From the NCBI RefSeq assembly GCF_018986915.1, contig NZ_CP076723.1, positions 644,631 to 676,630 on the forward strand: a DNA stretch of 32,000 bases, in the 5' to 3' direction. The stretch is from Geomonas oryzisoli (lineage in GTDB: Bacteria > Desulfobacterota > Desulfuromonadia > Geobacterales > Geobacteraceae). The notes beneath the pieces were generated by a model. It searched no databases. It was not told where the DNA came from and worked only from the letters and a program-made list of their open reading frames with translations. Each line of letters starts with the position of its first letter. The first letter of the stretch is position 1. The position numbers were made by a program, and so were the translations under genes. Of the stretch, positions 2,982-26,228 are shown piece after piece.

Positions 2982-5417
2982 ATGTCCGAAACCGATTGCC
3001 GAGTCCCCGTAGAGAAGCTCCGCTGGGTCTGCGATCCCGCCCTGTTCAATTTCAAGACCACCGAAGAGATAGCCAACCTGGAGGGGAACATCACCCAGGA
3101 CCGGGCCCTGGCCGCCATCGAGTTCGGCCTGGGGATGTCCAACAACGGCTTCAACATCTACCTGGCCGGCGAGCCCGGCACCGGCAGGACCTCCACCATC
3201 CGGCAGATGCTGAAGAAGTTCGTCAAGGACACCTGCCCCCCCAGCGACTGGTGCTACGTCAACAATTTCCACACCCCGGACGCGCCCCTGGCCATTGCCC
3301 TCCCCGCCGGAATGGGGCGCGCTTTCGCCGCGGACATGCGCGAGCTTTTGGACTACATGCGCGCCAACGTCCCCACTGCGCTGGAGAGCAAGGAGTACGA
3401 GACCAACCGCGTCTCCATCATCGAGCGCTTCCAGGAGCGAAACGGCGAGATCTTTTCCGACCTGGAGCAGGAGGCGGGGGAGAAGGGCTTCGCCCTGCAG
3501 CGCACCGTCTCCGGCCTGGTGATCGTGCCGCAGAAGGAGGGGCGCAACTTCACCCAGGAGGAGTACGAGGCGCTCGAGAAGGATGAGCGGGAAAAGCTGG
3601 ATACGGTGGGGCGCGAGCTGACCGAGAAGCTGAACGACGCGCTGCGCCAGGTACGCGAGAACGAGAAGGCGCTCAGGGACGCCCTGGCGCAGCTGGACCG
3701 CGAGCTGGGGCTCTCAGCGGTCGGGCACCACCTGAACCCGCTCAAGGAGAAGTACCAGGGATTCGGGAAGGTTCAGCAGTACCTGGAAGACGTCCAGGAG
3801 GATCTGCTTCTGAACCTGGAGGACTTCAAGCCGCAGGTCGCCCCGCCGCAGATCCCGGGGCTCAAGATCCCCAAGCAGGAGCCCACCTTCGAGCGCTACG
3901 AGGTGAACGTCCTGGTGGAGAACAACCCGGACAACGGCGCGCCTGTCATCTTCGAGTCCAACCCGACCTACAACAACCTCTTCGGGCGCATCGAGAACAT
4001 CATGCAGATGGGAGGAATGGCGACCACCAACTTCACCCTGATCAAGCCGGGTGCCCTGCACCGGGCCAACGGCGGCTACCTCATCCTGGATGCGCGCGAG
4101 GTGCTGATCAACCCCTTCGCCTGGGAATCGCTCAAACGCTGCATCAGGAACATGGAGATCAAGATCGAGGACGTCCTGGAGCAGTACCGCTTCATGACCG
4201 TGGTCTCGCTCAAGCCCGAGCCGGTCCCGCTCAACGCCAAGATCATCATGATCGGCTCGCTCTGGATCTATTACCTGCTCTACTACCTGGAGCCCGACTA
4301 CAGAAAGTTCTTCAAGGTGAAGGCCGACTTCGACAGCCAGATCAACCGCACCCCCGAGGTGATGCAGGATTACGCCCTGTTCGTCGCCGCCCACTGCTGC
4401 AAGGAGGGGCTGCTCCCCTTCGACCCCACCGGCGTCGCCGCACTCCTGGAGCACGCCTCGCGCCTGGTTGAGGACCAGGACCGGCTCTCCTCCCAGTTCA
4501 TGGAGCTCTCCGACCTGATCCGCGAGTCGAGCTACTGGGCCAAGCGCGGCGGCGCGCAGGTGGTCGACCGCAGCTGGGTCAAGAGGGCGATTCACGAGAA
4601 GACCTACCGTTCCAACCGTATCGAGGAGAGGATCCAAGAGTACCTGGCCCAGGGGATCATCCTGTGCGACACCAAGGGGAGCGTCGTCGGGCAGATCAAC
4701 GGCCTTTCCGTGATCACCATGGGCGATTACACCTTCGGCCGCCCCTCGCGTCTCACCATCCGCGTTTCCCAAGGGCGCTCCGGCATGGTCAACATCGAGC
4801 GCGAGGTGAAGCTCTCCGGCCCGATCCACGACAAGGGCGTGCTGATCCTCACCGGGTACCTGGCCGGCAAGTTCGGGCAGGAACAGCCGCTCTCCTACTC
4901 CGCCCACATCTGTTTCGAGCAGTCCTACGAGGGGATCGAGGGGGACAGCGCCTCCTCGGCCGAGCTCTACGGGCTCCTTTCCGCGTTCTCCGGTCTCCCC
5001 GTGAAGCAGGGGATCGCCGTCACCGGCAGCGTCAATCAGCACGGGCAGATCCAGCCCATCGGCGGGGCGAACTACAAGATCGAGGGGTTCTTCGCCGTCT
5101 GCAAGGCGAAAGGGCTGACCGGTGAGCAGGGGGTGATCGTCCCGAAGATCAACGAACACAACCTGATGCTGAGCGACGAGGTGGTGCAGGCCGTCTCCGA
5201 CGGGATGTTCCACATCTGGAGCGTTTCCCAGGTGGAAGAGGGGATCGAGATCCTGACGGGTGTTCCCGCCGGCAAGGTCGGCGAGGACGGCGGCTATCCC
5301 GAGGGGACCGTCAACTTCCTGGTGCAGAAGAAGCTCAAGACCATGCTGGACAACATGCGCAAGCTGCAGCTCCAGGACAAGGAGGGGAAGGACGAGCCGG
5401 TGAAACTGCTGGAGTAG
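2982..5417 (+). CDS. Lon-like protease (AAA-like domain plus C-terminal Lon S16 protease domain) with deviant nucleotide-binding motifs
   Basis: 811 aa. P-loop-like GEPGTGRTS and Walker-B-like YLILDA. The C-terminal Lon-type Ser/Lys region has GDSASSAE...TGSVNQHGQIQPIGGANYKIEGF. An AGGAGG RBS precedes the ATG. Confidence 0.85.
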   Translation: MSETDCRVPVEKLRWVCDPALFNFKTTEEIANLEGNITQDRALAAIEFGLGMSNNGFNIYLAGEPGTGRTSTIRQMLKKFVKDTCPPSDWCYVNNFHTPDAPLAIALPAGMGRAFAADMRELLDYMRANVPTALESKEYETNRVSIIERFQERNGEIFSDLEQEAGEKGFALQRTVSGLVIVPQKEGRNFTQEEYEALEKDEREKLDTVGRELTEKLNDALRQVRENEKALRDALAQLDRELGLSAVGHHLNPLKEKYQGFGKVQQYLEDVQEDLLLNLEDFKPQVAPPQIPGLKIPKQEPTFERYEVNVLVENNPDNGAPVIFESNPTYNNLFGRIENIMQMGGMATTNFTLIKPGALHRANGGYLILDAREVLINPFAWESLKRCIRNMEIKIEDVLEQYRFMTVVSLKPEPVPLNAKIIMIGSLWIYYLLYYLEPDYRKFFKVKADFDSQINRTPEVMQDYALFVAAHCCKEGLLPFDPTGVAALLEHASRLVEDQDRLSSQFMELSDLIRESSYWAKRGGAQVVDRSWVKRAIHEKTYRSNRIEERIQEYLAQGIILCDTKGSVVGQINGLSVITMGDYTFGRPSRLTIRVSQGRSGMVNIEREVKLSGPIHDKGVLILTGYLAGKFGQEQPLSYSAHICFEQSYEGIEGDSASSAELYGLLSAFSGLPVKQGIAVTGSVNQHGQIQPIGGANYKIEGFFAVCKAKGLTGEQGVIVPKINEHNLMLSDEVVQAVSDGMFHIWSVSQVEEGIEILTGVPAGKVGEDGGYPEGTVNFLVQKKLKTMLDNMRKLQLQDKEGKDEPVKLLE

Positions 5418-6611: not shown

Positions 6612-7325
6612 GTGGCTAAACCTAAGATCCTGTTGGTCGACGATACCAGATTGATTCTTGAGCTGGAGAAGAGCTTTCTCAAAGCCTCCCATGTCGATGT
6701 CCTCACCGCCGGCGACGGTGTCGAGGCGCTGGAACTGGTCCGTAAGGACGCTCCCGACCTGATCTTCATGGACGTGAACATGCCGCTCATGGACGGCATA
6801 ACCTGCTGCAGGCTCTTGAAGAGCGATCCCTTCCTTTCCGCCATCCCCGTCGTCATGCTTACCACCGCCGGCAACGATGAGGACCGCGAGCGCGCACAGC
6901 AGGCGGGCTGCAACGACTTCCTCACCAAGCCCATCGACCGCCGCCTCTTCCTCGACATGGCCCGCAGGTACACCGACGCCGTGGACCGGCGCGAGGTGCG
7001 CATCCCCTGTCACATCCCGGTACTGTTCCTCCTGCACGGCAGCCCCGTCGGCGCCAATGCCCTCGACATCGGTGACGGCGGCCTGTTCCTCGCCAGCCGC
7101 GAAGAGGTCCTCGTCAACCAGGAACTGCGGCTCGCCCTTTTTCTGGAGACGGAGCAGAGGCCGCTATTGGAACTGAAGGGGAGGGTGGCCTGGGTGAACC
7201 AGGAGGGGAAACGGGTGCATGCCGGCCTCCCCACCGGATTCGGGGTCGAGTTACTGGAGCCGGCGCAGTGGCAAAAGGACGAGCTGAAGAATTTTGTCGA
7301 GGCGGTGCGCACCCCTCAACCTTAG
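6612..7325 (+). CDS. Response regulator: CheY-like receiver domain fused to a C-terminal PilZ (c-di-GMP-binding) domain
   Basis: REC motifs: KILLVDD, DLIFMDVNMPLMDG, VVMLTT, KP. PilZ motifs: RREVRIP ... DIGDGGLFL. The start is ambiguous. The GTG at 6612 follows GGGGGAG, while the track start at 6576 (GTG) has no RBS. Confidence 0.85.
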   Translation: MAKPKILLVDDTRLILELEKSFLKASHVDVLTAGDGVEALELVRKDAPDLIFMDVNMPLMDGITCCRLLKSDPFLSAIPVVMLTTAGNDEDRERAQQAGCNDFLTKPIDRRLFLDMARRYTDAVDRREVRIPCHIPVLFLLHGSPVGANALDIGDGGLFLASREEVLVNQELRLALFLETEQRPLLELKGRVAWVNQEGKRVHAGLPTGFGVELLEPAQWQKDELKNFVEAVRTPQP

Positions 7326-7340
7326 CCTCAACCTGCTTCT

Positions 7341-8390
7341 CTACGGCGCAGCGAGGAGCGTCAGCCGGAACCAGAGCCAGGTCAGGAGGGCGGCACCCAG
7401 GTCGCCCCCCTTGTTGTCGATGAGCCGCCCCAGGAGGCGGTCGTAAAGGTCCAGGAACCTCCCCCCCCTCCCTTCTTCCTTAATCCCGCCGGTCAAAACA
7501 TCCAGAAAGAAAGCGATCTGCCAGGCGTTCCCCCGCACATAGGCTCCGGTGCGGCACCATAACCGGCGCCGTTCATGCGCCTCGAGCTCGGCCATGGCCT
7601 GCTGCAGCGGCTCCAGGAAGGGCTTGAGCTGCAGGCGCGCGGTGGCGTCCTGGCTGCGGTAACTCGTCTGCAGGCACCGGACCAGAGAAAGATGGCCGAT
7701 ATGGGCCAGGTTCATCAGGATGGCGTTGAGCGTCTGCCTGGGGAGAAGCCCCTCGGTCTGGAAGCGCCGCGGCGAGGTGGTGATGGCGGCGGGGAGGAGG
7801 AGCCAGCGTCCCTCCCGCCGCACCCGCTCGGCGAGGAAGGTGTCTTCCATGAGCGGAAGCGACGTGTCGTAGGGGCCGACCTGCGCGAAGAAGTCGCGAC
7901 GGATCAGAAACCCCTGGTCGCCGTGGGTGCATCCGGGGCGGTCCAGGGCGGCCTTGGCGCCGTAGAAGCGGTAGGGGAACGGGGTGGTGCCGGGGAAGCC
8001 GAAACGGAGGGCGAAGCGGCCGGCGACGCTTGCTCCGGAGCGAAGGGCCTCCCCGAGGGAATCAAGCGCCTTCCTGAGGGCGAGCGGGTCTTCGAAGCTG
8101 GAATCGATGTGCAGGAAGAGGAGGGTTTCGGCGCGGGCCGCGTCGGCGCCCCGGTTCAACTGTCTCCCTCGTCCCTTGGTCCCTTGGACCAGGGAGAGCG
8201 GGAAGGGGAGCCCGTCATGCAGCTTCTGCGCGATGGCAAGGGTGCGGTCGCTGGAAGCGCCGTCGGAGAGGATGACCTCCAGGCGTACCCCCTGCTGCCG
8301 GGCGAGTGCCGTGAGGAAGGAAGCCACGTTCCCCTCCTCGTTATAGACCGGCACTACGACCGACAGTTCGGGGCACGACTCATAGGGCAA
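7341..8390 (-). CDS. Family 2 glycosyltransferase with a C-terminal extension of roughly 110 aa
   Basis: 349 aa. The N-terminal GT2 signature is LSVVVPVYNEEGNV ... ILSDGASSDRT ... FLHIDS. The start overlaps the cheV stop by 11 nt. Confidence 0.8.
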   Translation of the reverse strand: MPYESCPELSVVVPVYNEEGNVASFLTALARQQGVRLEVILSDGASSDRTLAIAQKLHDGLPFPLSLVQGTKGRGRQLNRGADAARAETLLFLHIDSSFEDPLALRKALDSLGEALRSGASVAGRFALRFGFPGTTPFPYRFYGAKAALDRPGCTHGDQGFLIRRDFFAQVGPYDTSLPLMEDTFLAERVRREGRWLLLPAAITTSPRRFQTEGLLPRQTLNAILMNLAHIGHLSLVRCLQTSYRSQDATARLQLKPFLEPLQQAMAELEAHERRRLWCRTGAYVRGNAWQIAFFLDVLTGGIKEEGRGGRFLDLYDRLLGRLIDNKGGDLGAALLTWLWFRLTLLAAP

Positions 8391-9321
8391 GGGTATCCGC
8401 CTTCTGCACCAGGTTGGGGAGGTCCGGCTTGGTGAGGATGTCGCTCGCCCCCAGGTTGCGCCATTTCATCTTGTTGTCCTCGCTGGCCAGCGACGAGAAT
8501 ATTACCACGGGGAGCCCGTCCAGGTCAGACTCCTTCCGGATCAGGGCGGTAAGGTGCAGTCCGTCCATGCGGGGCATTTCGATGTCGGTGATCACGAGGC
8601 TCAGTACCTCCTTCAGCGGCTGCTTGCTCTCCGCGCATTTCTGACGTATCGCCTGCACGTGTTCCCAGGCCTCCTCGCCGTTTTCCGCCTCGACTACCTG
8701 GTACCCCGCTTCACGCAGCGACCCGCACATGGTCCTCCTGATGAAGGCCGAGTCGTCGGCGACCAGGATGGTCCTGGCGCCGCGGTTCGCCACGGAGTGG
8801 GCCAGCATCAGGTCTTCCCCCGGTGTGGCCAGGGCCATGGTCGAGGAGAGTTCCCCGATGATCTTTTCGAAGTCGAGGATGAGGATGATCCGGTCCTCCA
8901 TCTTCACCACGCCGGTGATGTTGGCGTCGTGGATCGCTTTCACCGGCGGCTCCACGTTTTCCCAGGAAATGCGATAGATGCGGGAGACCGAGTGCACCTG
9001 GATGCCGACCACGATCCTGTTGAACTCGAGCACGATGACCCGGTCCGCGGGTATCCCTTCCGTGTTCTTGTTCAGCGAGCGGGAGAGGTCGATCAGGGTG
9101 ATCACCTGGTCGCGCAGTTTGATCATGCCGCTCACGCAGGGGTTGGCGTTCACCACCTTGCGCGTCTCCGGCAGTCTGATGATCTCGCGGACCTTGGCTA
9201 CGTTAACGCCGAAATAGCAGGGGATGACGTTCCCCTTGCCGTCCACCTCGTCGATCCTGAATTCGACTATTTCCAGTTCGTTGGTGCCGCTTTCGAGCAG
9301 AATCTTGTTGTTCGGTTCCAT
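8380..9321 (-). CDS. cheV: Chemotaxis coupling protein CheV (CheW-like domain plus receiver domain)
   Basis: 313 aa. N-terminal CheW-like domain (ELEIVEFRI..FGVNVAKVREIIRLPE). C-terminal REC domain (ILVADDSAFIRR, ITDIEMPRMDG, KP). Confidence 0.9.
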   Translation of the reverse strand: MEPNNKILLESGTNELEIVEFRIDEVDGKGNVIPCYFGVNVAKVREIIRLPETRKVVNANPCVSGMIKLRDQVITLIDLSRSLNKNTEGIPADRVIVLEFNRIVVGIQVHSVSRIYRISWENVEPPVKAIHDANITGVVKMEDRIILILDFEKIIGELSSTMALATPGEDLMLAHSVANRGARTILVADDSAFIRRTMCGSLREAGYQVVEAENGEEAWEHVQAIRQKCAESKQPLKEVLSLVITDIEMPRMDGLHLTALIRKESDLDGLPVVIFSSLASEDNKMKWRNLGASDILTKPDLPNLVQKADTLAL

Positions 9322-9418
9322 ACGCCCCCCGATTGTGTAGTGCCGTTGCTCCTCATTACATCGGCAGCCGGAGGGAAATCATGAGACAAAAACTGCGCAG
9401 CGGAGACCCGGACCTTCC

Positions 9419-9578
9419 CCTTACGCCTCTGCGGCTCCGGGGGGAGAGCCTCTGATTACAGACTTAACGCAAAGGCGCCAAGGTGCGAAGACGCAAAGAG
9501 ATTTTTTACTGAAACGTACTGGATCTTGCCTAACGCTTTTTCTTCGCGTCTCCGCGGCTCCGCGTCTTTGCGTTAAAG
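9419..9578. repeat. REP-like intergenic element family built from tandem 8-nt NCGCNNAG periods; an inverted pair plus a degenerate third copy
   Basis: Forward copy 9467-9498 = ACGCAAAG GCGCCAAG GTGCGAAG ACGCAAAG. Reverse copy 9542-9573 = CTTCGCGT CTCCGCGG CTCCGCGT CTTTGCGT. The outer 11 bp, TTAACGCAAAG and CTTTGCGTTAA, are perfectly complementary. The same family occurs at 20229-20415. Confidence 0.75.
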
Positions 9579-9588
9579 CTTTTGTTTG

Positions 9589-11595
9589 TCATATACCTTC
9601 CCGCACATCCACCCTGTTGTCGTAGAAGGTGCTCCCGCCCCCCCGGTCGGTCAGGCGCTGCGAGGTCAAAGCGTTCACCGAGCGCGCACCCGGCGCATGG
9701 GCGAGCCACCATACCCCCTCGGCGACCACCACTCCCCGAGGCACCTTGGGCGTGACCTGCAGCCGGAAGGTCACCTCCCCCAGCTCGTTCCAGGCGACCA
9801 CCTCCGCGCCGTCGGCGAGCCCCTTGCCCGCCGCGTCATCCGGGTTCATCTTGAGCTGCATCCCCCCCTGGCTCTCCCGCAGTTCCTCCCGCTCGTAGAA
9901 GGTCGCGTTCAGCGCGAAAGGGGTGGGCGCGGTCATCAGCCGGAAGGGGAGCTTCCCCTGTTCCTCGTGGGTGGGGAGGTAGCGCGGCAGCTTCTCCTCG
10001 AGCCGCTCGTTCAGGATCTCGATCTTCCCCGAGGGGGTCACGATCCCTCCCGGTCTTGCCGCCAGGGTCACCGGGCGCCCCTCGGCGAGAGCCTCCTCGT
10101 CGATTCCCGCCCGCAGCGGCTTGGGCACCGCGAGCAGCCGGTCGATCATCTGGTCAGCGGTGAGGGTGAAGATCTCCTCCTCGAATCCCATCGCCTGCGC
10201 CAGCAGGGAGAACACCTCCCAGTTGGACTTGCTCTCCCCCACCGGGTCGACCACCGCCTGGGCGCGCTGGATGCAGTAGGTGCCGTAGGAGCGGTAGATG
10301 TCGCTGTGCTCAAGCGACGAGGTGGCGGGAAGCACGATGTCGGCGTAGCGCGCGGTGTCGGTCAGGAAACGCTCGTGCACCACGGTGAAGAGGTCGTCGC
10401 GGGAGAGCCCCTTCAGCACCGCGTTCTGGTCCGGCGTCACCGCGGCGGGGTTCGAGTGGTACACGTAGAGCCCCATGACCCGCGGGGCGTCGAGCTGGTT
10501 CAGCGCGCTCCCCAACTGGTTCATGTTGATGAGCCGTGTCTGCCCCGGGATCAGGTCCTCCCTGGTCAGTATCTCCATGGGGAAGGCGGCGCCGGTCGCG
10601 GTATCCGGGAAACACCCACCCCCCTCCCTGCCGTAGGCCCCGACCAGCGCCGGCAGGCAGCAGATCGAGCGCACCGTCATGGACCCGTTGCCGTAGCGCG
10701 ACAGCCCGCTCCCGAGCCGGATGAAGGGGGCCCTGGCCGCCGCGTAGGCGCGCGCCATCTCCTCGATCACCTCCGGCGCGAGGCCGGTGATCTCCGCGCA
10801 ACGCTGCGGCGTCATCTCCGGAAGCACCTCGGCCGCCAGCTCCTCGAACCCCAGCACCTGTTGCGCAAGAAACTCGGCGTCTGTCAGCCCCTCGCGGGCG
10901 ATCACGTGCATCATCCCCAGGGCGAGCGCCCCGTCGCTTCCCGGACGCACCAGGAAGGTGCGGTCCGCGGCGGACGCGGTCGGTGTCTCGTAGGTATCGA
11001 TCAGCCAGATCCGCCCTCCACCTTGCCGCACCTCGTGCGCCTGGTTCAGGAAGTGGATGCTGGTCGCCGCCGCGTTGATCCCCCACAGGATCAGGAGATC
11101 GCTTTTGCCGGCCGATTCAGGCGGCGGGGTCGCAGTCTTCCCCATTACCGCCTCCCACCCCGCCCCCTTGGCCGGGGAGCAGATGGTGCGGTCCAGCCGG
11201 GAGGCACCCATGCGGTGGAAGAAGGGGTGCCCCGCGTTGCGCTGCACGATTCCCATCGTTCCGGCGTAGGAGTAGGGGAGGATGGCCTCCCCGCCGTGGC
11301 CGGCGATGATGGCGCGCCAGCGCTCGGCTATGGTGGCGATCGCCTCGTCCCAGGTGATGGCGGTGAACTCGCCGCTACCTTTGGCGCCGGTTCTCTTGAG
11401 CGGCGTGGTGAGGCGCAGCGGCGAATGCACGCTTTTCTCGTAGTGGCGCATCTTCGGGCAGAGGGTGCCGCGGCTGAAGGGGTGGAGGGGGTCGCCCTGC
11501 ACCGCGACGGCCTTGCCGTTTTCCACCTCGACCAGCATGCTGCAGGTGTCCGGGCAGTCGAATGGGCAGACCGATCTCCTGGTGACGACGTTCAT
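9589..11595 (-). CDS. Molybdopterin-dependent oxidoreductase with an N-terminal 4Fe-4S domain (cytoplasmic type)
   Basis: 668 aa. N-terminal Cys cluster CPFDCPDTC...C(PKM), followed by molybdopterin oxidoreductase and C-terminal molybdopterin dinucleotide-binding regions. A GAGGAG RBS is present. No signal peptide h-region is visible. Confidence 0.88.
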   Translation of the reverse strand: MNVVTRRSVCPFDCPDTCSMLVEVENGKAVAVQGDPLHPFSRGTLCPKMRHYEKSVHSPLRLTTPLKRTGAKGSGEFTAITWDEAIATIAERWRAIIAGHGGEAILPYSYAGTMGIVQRNAGHPFFHRMGASRLDRTICSPAKGAGWEAVMGKTATPPPESAGKSDLLILWGINAAATSIHFLNQAHEVRQGGGRIWLIDTYETPTASAADRTFLVRPGSDGALALGMMHVIAREGLTDAEFLAQQVLGFEELAAEVLPEMTPQRCAEITGLAPEVIEEMARAYAAARAPFIRLGSGLSRYGNGSMTVRSICCLPALVGAYGREGGGCFPDTATGAAFPMEILTREDLIPGQTRLINMNQLGSALNQLDAPRVMGLYVYHSNPAAVTPDQNAVLKGLSRDDLFTVVHERFLTDTARYADIVLPATSSLEHSDIYRSYGTYCIQRAQAVVDPVGESKSNWEVFSLLAQAMGFEEEIFTLTADQMIDRLLAVPKPLRAGIDEEALAEGRPVTLAARPGGIVTPSGKIEILNERLEEKLPRYLPTHEEQGKLPFRLMTAPTPFALNATFYEREELRESQGGMQLKMNPDDAAGKGLADGAEVVAWNELGEVTFRLQVTPKVPRGVVVAEGVWWLAHAPGARSVNALTSQRLTDRGGGSTFYDNRVDVREGI

Positions 11596-20228: not shown

Positions 20229-20415
20229 CTAACGCAAAGGCGCGGAGCCGCAGAGACGCAGGGGAAGGCGAATCGAAGTCTTGCGGGTTTTCCCTCTAAA
20301 GCTTTTCTTAGCGCCTTTGCGGCTTGGCGTCTTTGCGTTAAAGCCTTTTCCTTTTGTGTGGTTTTTGGTTTTTGCCGTAAGGGTTTCTTAGTGTCTCTGC
20401 GGCTTTGCGTTAATA
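20229..20415. repeat. Three copies of the NCGCNNAG-octamer REP-like element (one forward, two reverse)
   Basis: Forward copy 20232-20263 = ACGCAAAG GCGCGGAG CCGCAGAG ACGCAGGG. Reverse copy 20307-20338 = CTTAGCGC CTTTGCGG CTTGGCGT CTTTGCGT. Reverse copy 20387-20410 = CTTAGTGT CTCTGCGG CTTTGCGT. This is the same family as 9419-9578. Confidence 0.75.
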
Positions 20416-21983: not shown

Positions 21984-22022
21984 GAAAATGCCCGGTCCAC
22001 TTCATGTGTGGCCGGGCATTTT
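21984..22022. terminator. Bidirectional terminator hairpin after hisG
   Basis: AAAATGCCCGG(T)CCAC / GTGGCCGGGCATTTT stem with one bulge. A-rich upstream and TTTT downstream. Confidence 0.7.
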
Positions 22023-22044
22023 GTGCGCTGCACACCATGTCGGG

Positions 22045-22238
22045 TCACGAATGGTTGCGCACCAGCCTGATCTCCAATTTGCAATCGACGGCGGCGGCAT
22101 ACTTGCGGAGCATCTCCAGAGAGGGCGAATGGCGGTGTGAGCCAAGTGAACCTTCCACTCTTGCCAGCGAAGGCTGGGAAATCCCATCCTGTTCGCCACT
22201 TCTTCATGCGTCAATCCTGCCTGCTTTCCTGTCGACAT
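22045..22238 (-). pseudogene. Frameshifted, N-terminally short XRE-family HTH gene remnant (antitoxin-like)
   Basis: On the minus strand, one frame reads MSTGKQAGLTHEEVANRMG. A second frame then continues ISQPSLARVEGSLGSHRHSPSLEMLRKYAAAVDCKLEIRLVRNHS* (stop at 22045-22047). Joined together they form a canonical HTH_XRE helix 2 and 3 plus tail. The join at ...AGGATGGGATTTCCC... requires a 1-nt frameshift. A TAA lies 3 codons upstream of the ATG and there is no clear RBS. Confidence 0.55.
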
Positions 22239-22259
22239 TCCATATTATGCCCAAGGGGG

Positions 22260-22905
22260 GCAATCGACGGCGCTGCCGATTTATTGCAGGGGCAGGAGAT
22301 TGAATCGAAGGTGCTGCGGATTTGCTGCCGGGGCTGGAGATTGAATCGACGGTGCTGGTGATTTATCGCCGGGGCTGGAGATTGAATCGACGGTGCTGGT
22401 GATTTATCGCCGAGGCTGGAGATTGAACCGACAGCGCTGAGGATTTATCGCCGGGGCTGGAGATTGAATCGACGGCGCTGACGATTTATCGCCGGGGCTG
22501 GAGGTTGAATCGACGGCGCTGACGATTTATCGCCGGGGCTGGAGGTTGAATCGACGGCGCTGCCGATTTATCGCCGAGGCTGGAGATTGAATCGACGGCG
22601 CTGGCGATTTATCGCCGAGGCTGGAGATTGAATCGGCGGCGCTGGCGATTTATCGCCGAGGCTGGAGATTGAATCGACGGTGCTGCGGATTTATTGCCGA
22701 GGCTGGAGATTGAATCGACGGTGCTGGGGATTTATTGCCGAGACTGGAGGTTGAATCGACGGCGCTGCCGATTATCGCCGAGGCTGGAGGTTGAATCGAC
22801 GGCGCAGCCGATTTATCGCCGCGGCTGGAGATTGAATCGATGGCGCTGACGATTAATCGGCGAGGCTGGAGATTGAATCGACGGCGCTGACGATTCATCG
22901 CCGAG
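22260..22905. repeat. Tandem array of about 16 head-to-tail copies of a 41-bp unit (consensus TGAATCGACGGCGCTGNNGATTTATCGCCGRGGCTGGAGAT); there are no spacers
   Basis: The TGAATCG landmark occurs at 22301, 22342, 22383, 22424, 22465, 22506, 22547, 22588, 22629, 22670, 22711, 22752, 22792, 22833 and 22874. All steps are 41 bp except one of 40 bp. A degenerate unit begins at about 22260. Confidence 0.95.
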
Positions 22906-22992
22906 ACCCAACATGCAATAGACAATGCTCACGCAGTCGAGGTGGGGGAGGGAGACAAAGGAGACTGTTGCGTGGGGGGGCTGGCGGGAAGT

Positions 22993-23020
22993 GCGGCTGC
23001 GGCACTGAAGCCGCAGCCGC
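22993..23020 (-). terminator. Perfect 11-bp hairpin 13 nt downstream of the 216-aa gene (possible terminator, no U-tract)
   Basis: GCGGCTGCGGC / GCCGCAGCCGC with a 6-nt loop. There is no T-run on either strand, so its terminator function is uncertain. Confidence 0.35.
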
Positions 23021-23032
23021 GTACGTTAATGA

Positions 23033-23683
23033 TCAGCTCAAGACGATATCGGTGACCGCAGACCACGGCCCGTAGCCTGTGTTGTTGTGGTACCTGACCC
23101 TGATGTAGTACCGTTTCACCAGATCAAGTTTCAACTCTATCTTGCACAGGTAGGATCTCTCCACGCTTGTCCAAGAGGCTTCATCGCTCGGATTTTCCGT
23201 GTACTGAGCCTCAATGCTCCCCATTCCCGCAATTTTACTGACGATAATCCAGAAGATACCGGAGCCTTTCGGACCGGGTCTCAGGTCGACTTTGTCCGGC
23301 TGGCCAGGAAGGGTGCTGCTGGCCGGTTTGGCAGGATAGGTCCGGTGGCTTAACTGGTAGCCTATATCCATCAGCGATGGGTCTTTTTCGTGCGTTGCCA
23401 CCATTACTGAGTGCTGGCAGGCGAAAATAAAGGCGGTGATGATTTCGTCGCGGGTGTTGTCTCTTTCTTCGGCTTTGAGTTTGTCGCCGTACCGCGCTGC
23501 TTCCGACGTTATCCCCAGTTTCGTTGCCAATTCGGTGAGGCGGTCGGGCCCGGGGACATGCTTCTGCAGGTCCTGGAAAGCGCGATGGGCTCTTATGCGC
23601 TCGGCAAACCTCAACGTTTCCTGAATCAGATCACCATCCGATAACTTCGTTAGCTCTGAAATGTCGTGCTTTGGAACCAGCAT
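23033..23683 (-). CDS. Hypothetical protein: helical N-terminal half and a beta-rich FN3-like C-terminal domain
   Basis: 216 aa. GGAGG lies 6 nt upstream of the ATG. The C-terminus YYIRVRYHNNTGYGPWSAVTDIVLS resembles the last strands of fibronectin type III domains. GC content is lower than in neighbouring genes. I recognise no family for the N-terminal half. Confidence 0.68.
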   Translation of the reverse strand: MLVPKHDISELTKLSDGDLIQETLRFAERIRAHRAFQDLQKHVPGPDRLTELATKLGITSEAARYGDKLKAEERDNTRDEIITAFIFACQHSVMVATHEKDPSLMDIGYQLSHRTYPAKPASSTLPGQPDKVDLRPGPKGSGIFWIIVSKIAGMGSIEAQYTENPSDEASWTSVERSYLCKIELKLDLVKRYYIRVRYHNNTGYGPWSAVTDIVLS

Positions 23684-23723: not shown

Positions 23724-23751
23724 ATTATTAAAATAAATTAAAAAATGTCAA
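23724..23751 (-). promoter_or_regulatory. Candidate sigma70-type promoter of the 216-aa gene, in an AT-rich tract
   Basis: On the minus strand: TTGACA (complement of 23746-23751), 16-nt spacer, AATAAT (complement of 23724-23729). It lies about 40 nt upstream of the ATG. Confidence 0.45.
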
Positions 23752-25637: not shown

Positions 25638-25799
25638 TCAGAACCGTCTCCGGCCGTCACTAAAGGTTCCCTGGGTGTCTACGCGGCGATTGTAATCATC
25701 AATTGCCTCTTTGTTCTCCTCGTTCCAATGCAGGTAATAGTCCTCTCTGACAGTAATCAACTTTTGGGGAGCATTGGGGCCAAACAGATTCACTGGCAT
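25638..25799 (-). CDS. Short CcdA-family antitoxin-like protein (orphan)
   Basis: 53 aa from the ATG at 25799 (AGGAGG lies 7 nt upstream). The C-terminal HWNEENKEAIDDYNRRVDTQGTFSDGRRRF matches the CcdA pattern RW..EN..A...N.FV...G.F.D..R.F. The region N-terminal to it is only about 23 aa. Confidence 0.6.
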   Translation of the reverse strand: MPVNLFGPNAPQKLITVREDYYLHWNEENKEAIDDYNRRVDTQGTFSDGRRRF

Positions 25800-25861
25800 G
25801 CGGATGCCTCCTGCGATTTGCGATCCGTATAACATACCCCATTCGTGTCATTCTTGAAAGT

Positions 25862-25984: not shown

Positions 25985-26173
25985 TTACGCAATCATCTCG
26001 CAGTCGTCTTCGGGCCAGCTGTCCAGGCTGCCGTCGGGGAGCTCCACCTGCACGGTGTCACCTTCGATGGTGCAGCCGTAACTCAGCCCGATCTCGCCGG
26101 TCTTCACGTTCTTCACCTGTACCCGCTGCTCTTTCCTCTCCGTGGTGTCACATATCTCTGAATGTACCCGTTT
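25985..26173 (-). CDS. Small hypothetical protein (62 aa), acidic C-terminus
   Basis: AGGAGG lies 5 nt upstream of the ATG. It sits 55 nt downstream of pckA on the same strand and is followed by a terminator. I recognise no family. Confidence 0.6.
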   Translation of the reverse strand, partial: KRVHSEICDTTERKEQRVQVKNVKTGEIGLSYGCTIEGDTVQVELPDGSLDSWPEDDCEMIA

Positions 26174-26228
26174 CATGGTAACCTCCTGAGTCCTGCGTTA
26201 ATGATAGCAGCGTGGCTTCGCAGTGCAA

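Follow-up and report, generated by a model that had tools for sequence, protein, structure and literature searches.

A phased tandem array behind an FN3-protein gene of Geomonas oryzisoli as a candidate protein-binding part of a chromosomal module in the Geobacteraceae

The genome of Geomonas oryzisoli (Geobacteraceae) contains, between positions 644,631 and 676,630 of contig NZ_CP076723.1 (assembly GCF_018986915.1), a spacer-less tandem array of 41-bp units which lies next to a gene for a 216-aa protein. These 32,000 nucleotides were analysed as a whole and are called the window here. The question raised by this locus is whether such an array is a by-product of repeat growth or a working part of something larger, and in the latter case what it works with. 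The original prediction, made from the letters of the DNA, took the array for a candidate centromere- or iteron-like binding site of a protein. From the comparison with related loci we are confident that the array is real, non-coding and selected for its phase and for short cores, and that it belongs to a conserved module together with the neighbouring gene. For its mode of action we favour, with a probability of about one half and judging from sequence comparison, a row of phased operator-like sites in duplex DNA, which would assemble many copies of a protein, probably the FN3 protein encoded next to it, on one face of the helix and be insulated from transcription.

Linkage of gene and array across the Geobacteraceae

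A periodic region lies downstream of the gene in 18 of 20 distinct loci of its protein family, down to a protein identity of 32% and in unrelated chromosomal contexts. The parts follow each other in the order gene, terminator hairpin, C-rich spacer and finally an array or a degenerate periodic region, with a period of 21, 41, 42 or 61.5 bp. The locus in the window is built in this way, with a family gene, the hairpin GCGGCTGCA...TGCAGCCGC no more than 65 nt further on and then the array within 100-280 nt; the module is further defined by an array period of one or more times about 20.5-21 bp. Clear arrays are present downstream of the gene in the window and at the related loci L007, L009, L010, L011, L015, L022, L023, L027 and L033 (Table 1). 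At each of the orthologue loci an array with a 41-bp period is found 100-260 bp past the stop codon, and four of the loci with clear arrays (L022, L023, L027 and L033) represent family members of only 32-41% identity. At L012, L019, L025, L026 and L028-L032, where Tandem Repeats Finder (TRF) saw little, a lag analysis of the 300 bp just past the gene revealed a degenerate periodicity of 21/42/63 bp (z=5-23), which is above that of all other intervals of the same locus. The 216-aa gene, which the original prediction treated as an uncharacterised neighbour, is the conserved partner of the array.

The surroundings of these modules are heterogeneous. The context is hisG/AHSA1 in the window, where the locus is placed between hisG and housekeeping genes, and in L007; it is the nuo operon in L009-L011 and L013, and elsewhere genes for PAS kinases, Fic and NUDIX proteins are found. 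The genes lying between differ among the family loci as well, and since the neighbours are so heterogeneous no function could be assigned by guilt by association. The gene past the array is always co-directional and is conserved only within one chromosomal context (L009-L011); as it differs outside that context, it was rejected as a third component of the module.

In all cases with a readable context the family loci are chromosomal. No homologue of the protein was found among 72,556 plasmids, 50,697 phages or viral contigs, and no match of the array among the same plasmids and phages, so that a plasmid or phage origin was rejected. A scan of species-representative genomes with the repeat unit returned only six chance single matches, from a collection which evidently does not contain the source genome, as the array of the window itself was missed. 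With this limit a dispersed satellite was rejected, too. Such a satellite without a conserved neighbourhood had been named in the original prediction as the case that would speak against it; the unit proved to be locus-specific and its neighbourhood conserved.

What is kept within these arrays is above all the spacing. Nine arrays with together 131 units contain 592 substitutions in comparison to their own consensus sequences and only two steps of a wrong length. In the degenerate arrays the autocorrelation is undiminished from lag 21 to lag 63, and array length is identical between close strains. Despite unit sequences which are unrelated between subfamilies, the periods (21, 41, 42 or 61.5 bp) always amount to a basic length of about 20.5-21 bp or to two or three times this length. 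A distance of 20.5-21 bp corresponds to two turns of B-DNA. Just this combination of an exact spacing, down to the base pair, and a freely changing sequence marks an array of sites with its cognate protein.

Within each array a short core is near-invariant and the linkers drift. The cores of the Geomonas group are AGTAAATT and GGTTGA.CCTCC. L026 and L028 share the core AATTTGCAAATT, L029, L030 and L032 the core TTTGGCTAAATC, and L025 and L031 the core TAAAGATGC. Several arrays have loop-less palindromic cores (ATTTGCAAAT, ATTTAGCTAAAT, GATTGAATC, GGTTGAACC), and a YAAAT half-site is recurrent in nearly all of them. The dyad at the unit junctions is preserved between species by changes in both of its arms (GATT/AATC, GGTT/AACC, GGCT/AGCC).

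Architecture of the module in the window

For the array of the window TRF reports a period of 41 bp with 15.7 copies at 22262-22905 (90% matches, score 931) and a weaker sub-period of 20 bp. Manual cutting gave 16 units, all in head-to-tail orientation and without spacers, whose spacing is 41 bp in 14 steps and 40 bp in one, as the original prediction had stated; within the 32 kb there is one additional partial copy. Its further claims, that the whole unit is conserved and not of the CRISPR type, that each unit consists of two diverged half-units, that variation is concentrated in one dinucleotide which neighbouring units often share, and that a repeat protein is unlikely, agree with the results given here, and its series of dinucleotides along the array was reproduced exactly. 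The two half-units of about 20.5 bp match each other at 19 of 41 positions at the half-unit lag (P=0.005). The 14-mer AATCGACGGCGCTG occurs 17 times in the window if up to two mismatches are allowed, compared to 0.65 expected occurrences. Only two nucleotides are hypervariable; these occupy columns 18-19 of the unit on the plus strand, which are its hottest columns. The variation is clustered (dispersion 3.8, P<1e-4), with 25 of 41 columns invariant versus 14 expected. Adjacent units with the same dinucleotide form five pairs versus 1.9 expected (P=0.02), and the units at the edges of the array are degenerate. As 41 is not divisible by 3 and each unit carries a TGA on the plus strand and a TAA on the minus strand, all frames are closed on both strands, which rules out a coding repeat for this array.

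The junction dyad GRTTGAAYC is found at 15 of 15 unit junctions. A second dyad is weaker, because its outer base is the hypervariable position; it is exact (CGATTTATCG) in six units and present in a relaxed form in nine. The original prediction of about 32 dyads was somewhat generous, as about 24 are clear, whereas the phasing of roughly two helical turns which it proposed is borne out by centres lying exactly 20.5 bp apart in the units with both dyads. The conserved cores of the array are GATAAATC and GATTCAATC. The dyads and the build from two half-units are true of the G. oryzisoli array but are not defining for this class of arrays.

Directly past the array lies an XRE/HTH_3 gene (22002-22238, minus strand) with one frameshift, whose repaired 64-aa product matches PF01381 (E=1e-7). 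It had been noted as decayed before, and could be a pseudogene or the result of a sequencing error. In its C-terminal coding part sits the solo unit-like sequence TTTGCAATCGACGGCGGCGGCAT, which has 13 identical nucleotides (GCAATCGACGGCG) in common with the first array unit and may be a relic or a seed of the array.

The product of the 216-aa open reading frame (ORF) is 100% identical to KP004_02920 of G. oryzisoli. Look-ups by exact protein sequence gave no entry for this product or for the hisG product of the window. In AlphaFold (AF2) models of the protein, which have a predicted local distance difference test (pLDDT) score of 87, residues 1-110 form a three-helix bundle, and residues 125-216 are a standard FN3 domain according to both the models and fold searches. 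No structural match to the N-terminal bundle exists in the PDB (best E about 1), the fold searches returning FN3 domains only, and neither a sequence match nor a Pfam family was found for this N-domain in any of 62 family members. The protein gave no Pfam, PADLOC or NCBIfam family and no meaningful PHROG match, and for want of a PADLOC match its membership in a defence system was rejected. The isoelectric point is about 6 for the acidic N-domain and about 9.2 for the basic FN3 domain. FN3 domains usually mediate protein-protein contacts. In L009 and L011 the orthologues are preceded by the same promoter sequence TTGACA-16-AATAAT as the gene of the window, and in L010, L015, L022 and L023 by variants of it.

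An exhaustive profile search revealed 132 matches at E<1e-10, many of which are full-length proteins of about 215 aa; these matches are representatives of clusters at 50% identity. Neither a word-indexed search nor a cluster look-up gave family members with G. bemidjiensis locus-tag names. For many members the only sources are metagenome contigs of about 1.1-1.3 kb, which look as if the assemblies routinely break at the repeat array, and assembled data probably contain too few members of the family and too few of its arrays.

The stem GCGGCTGCA...TGCAGCCGC of the hairpin is essentially invariant and was found in 17 of 21 scanned loci, once per locus and 12-65 nt past the stop codon. In about 200 kb of DNA from related loci it is absent elsewhere, except for one weak fuzzy match elsewhere in the window. 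Of the aligned cells 91% are paired, versus 18-56% if the partner is slid, and four pairs are altered on both sides. In the hairpin core both single-side changes give U.G on the gene-sense strand and would be A.C mismatches on the other strand. The folding energy of the G. oryzisoli hairpin is -27.9 kcal/mol, and in L022 and L033 a T-run follows directly after the hairpin. From the pairing, the two-sided changes, the U.G pairs on the gene-sense strand and the T-runs it follows that the hairpin is an RNA terminator of the gene, with a sequence conservation that goes beyond any explanation so far.

The spacer behind the hairpin has a C content of 0.32-0.39 and a G content of 0.16-0.23 on the gene-sense strand in seven of nine loci, and its length varies across the loci from 100 to 275 nt. 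Such a C-rich and G-poor composition is typical of Rho-loading regions. No promoter-like site was found in the spacer on either strand. Between L015 and the near-identical strains L016/L017 the sole length differences of the module, 19-21 nt at about 6700-6760, fall into this spacer. Evidently the length of the spacer is free and that of the array is not.

Table 1. Positions of the module and of the solo sequence in the window, and arrays at related loci
Feature	Position	Strand	Remarks
Solo unit-like sequence TTTGCAATCGACGGCGGCGGCAT	22078..22100	+	165 bp outside the array, in the frameshifted HTH gene
Tandem array, 16 x 41-bp units (one of 40 bp)	22259..22913	.	TRF and manual cutting
C-rich, G-poor spacer between hairpin and array	22914..22992	-	C 0.39, G 0.22 on the gene-sense strand
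GC-rich terminator hairpin GCGGCTGCGGC-TTCAGT-GCCGCAGCCGC	22993..23020	-	begins 13 nt past the stop codon; conserved across loci
216-aa protein gene KP004_02920	23033..23683	-	ORF; three-helix N-domain and C-terminal FN3; first member of the family found with arrays
Sigma-70-type promoter of the 216-aa gene, TTGACA-16-AATAAT	23724..23751	-	promoter scan, 11/12
L007 and L008			41-bp-period array, contig ends within it
G. anaerohicana, L009			41-bp array, 16.4 copies
G. terrae, L010			41-bp array, 12.1 copies
G. azotofigens, L011			41-bp array, about 11 copies
Groundwater metagenome, L015-L017			41-bp array, 14.1 copies
L022			41 bp x 11.8
L023			41 bp x 15.5
L027			21 bp x 26.3
L033			41 bp x 10.8

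Duplex-DNA sites and competing explanations

The repeats could in principle act as DNA or as RNA. Folded as RNA, the plus strand of the G. oryzisoli array reaches z=-13 against dinucleotide shuffles, but only -1.5 and -2.1 against column-permuted tandem controls. Because the excess is nearly lost against controls which preserve the tandem arrangement, it stems largely from the repetition as such. On either strand, four of nine arrays show no better folding than the column-permuted controls and the array of the window shows a weak excess, pseudoknots being outside the folding model; RNA structure was therefore rejected as a shared feature of the arrays. The composition of some arrays, such as that of L027 with 74% pyrimidine and that of L022 with 9% G, precludes RNA structure. 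Rfam returned nothing at its gathering thresholds, and the matches below threshold to ncS037 (31 vs 112 bits) and mir-621 (29 vs 71 bits) are due to chance. In nine loci no sigma-70-like promoter was found on either strand, neither between hairpin and array nor within any array. A role at the DNA level is favoured because of the loop-less palindromes, the two-turn period, the intolerance to indels, the missing promoter, the terminator and the lack of a shared RNA structure. Indel intolerance, two-turn period and loop-less palindromes would be expected of duplex sites that face one side, and an RNA model would leave them unexplained; the palindromes would suit dimer sites on duplex DNA and, by their sequence, should be unable to form RNA hairpins.

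We propose that the array acts in cis within a conserved chromosomal module, which consists of a promoter, the gene for a protein of about 215 aa, the terminator hairpin, the C-rich spacer and the phased array. It would work as double-stranded DNA, in which short operator-like sites are lined up two helical turns apart; in G. oryzisoli these sites would be 20.5 bp apart, with alternating A and B half-units making up the 41-bp unit. A sequence-specific protein would bind to the sites. To take the neighbouring FN3 protein for that binder is the simplest assumption, since a change of the protein always goes along with a change of the repeat sequence. The bound copies would all come to lie on one face of the helix, where side-by-side contacts could join them into one extended nucleoprotein complex, and the terminator and the Rho-site-like spacer would keep RNA polymerase out of the array. 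Protein binding, the identity of the binder, the cooperativity of the complex and its purpose are the parts of this proposal that we infer. Of the original idea of a binding array, the multi-site platform for a protein is thus what the comparative data support best, while the analogy to plasmid centromeres and iterons is unsupported.

Several points weigh against this proposal. Its weakest link is the FN3 protein as the binder, a candidate suggested by genetic linkage and co-divergence and not by its fold: the protein has no recognisable DNA-binding fold, its novel N-domain is acidic, and the FN3 domain is the sole basic part. A single host factor acting at all loci would account for the shared YAAAT core just as well, and some cores in L025 and L027 are non-palindromic. 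Intrinsic DNA curvature was rejected as a property of the array, as a 10.25-bp phasing was not found in its A/T content. The promoter scan covers sigma-70-type sites only, and read-through transcription into the arrays is possible. Finally, two very distant family members are without a downstream array. One of them (L034) has a 21-bp array upstream of the gene instead, at the edge of the contig, and in the other (L035-37) the family gene lies beside a CRISPR array and has an ordinary terminator.

The same parts could also be read as an RNA-level module like the type III toxin-antitoxin (TA) systems. The array would then yield a repetitive non-coding RNA, owing to read-through or to a promoter that escaped recognition, and this RNA would bind, regulate or neutralise the adjacent protein and perhaps be processed by it. 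The known systems of this type (ToxIN, CptIN, TenpIN) comprise the same three ingredients, a small protein gene, a palindromic terminator and a cognate locus-specific repeat array, in the order promoter, tandem repeats, palindromic terminator and toxin gene (PMC3401426). One published toxIN locus even has its repeats downstream of the toxin. As is often the case for type III systems, several of the loci studied here lie among TA and defence genes (MazEF, HepT/MNT, DUF4160/DUF2442, CcdA, Mrr, GmrSD, reverse transcriptase), and many arrays per genome would suit a TA-like behaviour. We nevertheless regard a type III-like module as unlikely. The order is reversed to promoter, gene, terminator, spacer and array, no promoter feeding the array was recognised in nine loci, and the 10-26 copies here compare to 2-5.5 in type III loci. 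The protein has an unrelated fold without similarity to ToxN, AbiQ, CptN or TenpN and without a PADLOC match. RNA structure is not shared among the arrays, whose compositions can be extreme as described above, and loop-less palindromic cores as well as a period of about two helical turns make little sense in RNA. Somewhat less likely again is that another protein, such as a nucleoid-associated or global factor of the host, binds the array at a core of the YAAAT/TTTGCAAA type, with the FN3 protein as an indirect participant or a mere passenger. The common core in otherwise unrelated arrays and the missing DNA-binding fold of the FN3 protein would be in line with such a factor, but it explains neither the link of the arrays to one gene family in many contexts nor why the sequences beside the core are constant inside an array and yet change from one paralogue to the next. 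We also consider it improbable that the arrays are neutral or selfish satellites, made and homogenised past the terminator by slippage or unequal crossing-over and travelling with the gene. Adjacent units which are more alike than distant ones and share their dinucleotide, a higher-order repeat of 164 bp in the array of L009 and the degenerate edge units are in line with such processes. They do not account for an array kept at the same position across a protein divergence to 32% identity, a phase without indels even in arrays that are 45-75% self-identical, a column-specific constraint, a copy number that is stable between strains, and the same base period of about 20.5-21 bp in unrelated sequences.

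Iterons of theta plasmids are direct repeats of about 17-22 bp with a phasing of about two helical turns, whose specificity co-evolves with the adjacent protein gene. The G. oryzisoli array lies downstream of a small gene, and its dyad centres are two turns apart (20.5 bp; related arrays have a period of 21 bp), close to the iteron spacing of about 22 bp. However, a winged-helix Rep protein, an AT-rich region, DnaA boxes and a plasmid context are missing, and there are two to five times more copies; the GC content is 0.57-0.59 across all of 22000-23200, without an AT-rich unwinding region beside the array. The partition centromere sopC consists of twelve 43-bp direct repeats, each with an inverted repeat bound by SopB, and is located downstream of sopB (PMC3177203). 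The array described here likewise comprises a dozen or more head-to-tail units, close to 41-43 bp in length and each carrying a short inverted repeat, downstream of the gene for the binding protein, which would be the FN3 protein in this case. In contrast to sopC, gene and array are here set apart by a terminator and a spacer, a ParA/SopA ATPase and a ParB-fold protein are missing, and the loci are chromosomal and apparently present in multiple copies. According to the Pfam annotation of the neighbours, no ParA, ParB, ParR or Rep gene is present in the window or at the related loci; the original prediction had already stated that no par or rep gene lies next to the array. Neither protein nor array has plasmid or phage matches, all readable contexts are chromosomal, and G. 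bemidjiensis has many similar arrays per genome. A plasmid-type centromere or replication iteron in the strict sense is therefore very improbable, and the missing partner genes largely refute it. There is next to no chance that the array is a guide-RNA-type array (a degenerate CRISPR or TIGR array) or a coding repeat, even though its architecture is tandem, one distant family member lies beside a CRISPR array, and periods of 21 and 42 bp are multiples of 3. CRISPR arrays require unique spacers, and here the whole unit is conserved with only two variable nucleotides. TIGR-Tas units contain two variable spacers and are accompanied by a Nop-domain Tas protein (PMC12385481), whereas here there are no variable spacers and no Nop-domain or Cas protein. 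The 41-bp units with their stops in every frame of both strands are not coding. For the G. oryzisoli array both variants are refuted by the sequence itself.

Two further kinds of repeats differ from these arrays. Repetitive extragenic palindromes and bacterial interspersed mosaic elements (REP/BIME) occur in many dispersed and alternating copies, in contrast to the head-to-tail units of the window, where a single partial copy lies outside the array. Borg extrachromosomal elements have locus-specific, fast-diverging tandem direct repeats in intergenic regions, and their repeats are described as formed recently, of independent origin and often located inside genes (PMC9879509). The locus-specific, fast-diverging intergenic direct repeats are a likeness to that description, while an ancient link to one gene family and a fixed period are the difference.

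Some additional features were observed at these loci. The 21-bp array of L034 (Geomesophilobacter sediminis, positions 1-204) comprises at least 9.7 copies of CTCACCACTCCGGTATCCCTG and lies at the contig start, upstream of a family gene with 23% identity; it may be the array of a paralogue further upstream, beyond the contig, or represent an arrangement of array and then gene. The same locus contains at 3590-4847 an unrelated intergenic tandem repeat of 364 bp (3.5 copies, 98% identical). In L035 (91-4569), L036 (889-3041) and L037 (480-2632) a family member of about 30% identity, without a tandem array of its own, is located just past the end of a CRISPR array. That array has the 36-nt repeat ATTGTATCAGGTATTCCGACGGTGGGGTATCGGAAC, Cas2 at the edge of the locus and an insertion sequence within the array. 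Two genes past the array of G. anaerohicana (L009) lies a gene at 8209-11568 whose 1119-aa product combines a reverse transcriptase (RVT_1) with an HD-CE domain, in a variable island which has Mrr- and GmrSD-type genes in sister species. The window also encodes a CcdA-like antitoxin ORF (PF07362, E=2e-9) next to a 63-aa ORF without family (25638-25835 and 25985-26176, both on the minus strand), and no CcdB homologue was recognised. An octanucleotide repeat of the CTTTGCG type (such as CTTAGCGCCTTTGCGGCTTGGCGTCTTTGCG) is found in the window at 20300-20345 (plus strand), in L009 at 7530-7560, in L010 at 7480-7500, in L011 at 7195-7225 and in L012 at 7620-7650. It is located upstream of hisI in the window and upstream of the gene past the array in the related loci, and it is a match to the multicopy [TCTTTGCG]n repeats which are on record for G. 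bemidjiensis.

Earlier records and meaning of the modules

Comparable arrays were listed in the G. bemidjiensis genome paper of 2010 (Aklujkar et al., PMC2996986, Table S6), which contains about a dozen single-locus direct-repeat arrays (Gbem_R7301-R7315). Their units of 20, 21, 23 or 42 nt are present in up to 20 copies, and each array has its own consensus. Most of these arrays are located 3' of a 'conserved hypothetical protein', several have a CAAATT/AATTTG core, and one adjoins nuoN, which parallels the situation in L009-L011 and L013. They share with the G. oryzisoli array the family Geobacteraceae, the restriction to a single locus, the head-to-tail orientation and the intergenic position 3' of a hypothetical gene. 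A unit of 42 bp is listed, one of 41 bp is not, and the list proposes neither a function nor a helical-phase argument, a link to a protein family or a hairpin. The catalogue suggests that there are many such arrays per genome. Full-text literature searches yielded no paper which describes a module of gene, hairpin and array; the module appears to have been unrecognised previously, and the link of array and gene appears to be new.

It is conceivable, and we put this forward tentatively, that the modules represent a new class of chromosomal protein-DNA (or protein-nucleic-acid) systems, in which a small FN3 protein is combined with a private phased array of 10-26 cognate sites. Many mutually orthogonal copies of such a system may then exist in a single Geobacteraceae genome, with the terminator hairpin as their common handle. 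Their function would be unlike partition, replication control, CRISPR and the known toxin-antitoxin systems; sequence-addressed nucleoprotein landmarks, titration buffers or a new principle of defence or addiction are possibilities.

Long phased arrays without spacers are usually dismissed as satellites or variable-number tandem repeats, and here such arrays are tied to one uncharacterised protein family across deep divergence. If binding is confirmed, it would explain repeats that have been left uninterpreted since the G. bemidjiensis genome paper of 2010 and would give a new protein domain a nucleic-acid-related role. It could also provide natural orthogonal pairs of proteins and DNA arrays, usable as chromosomal tags or scaffolds.

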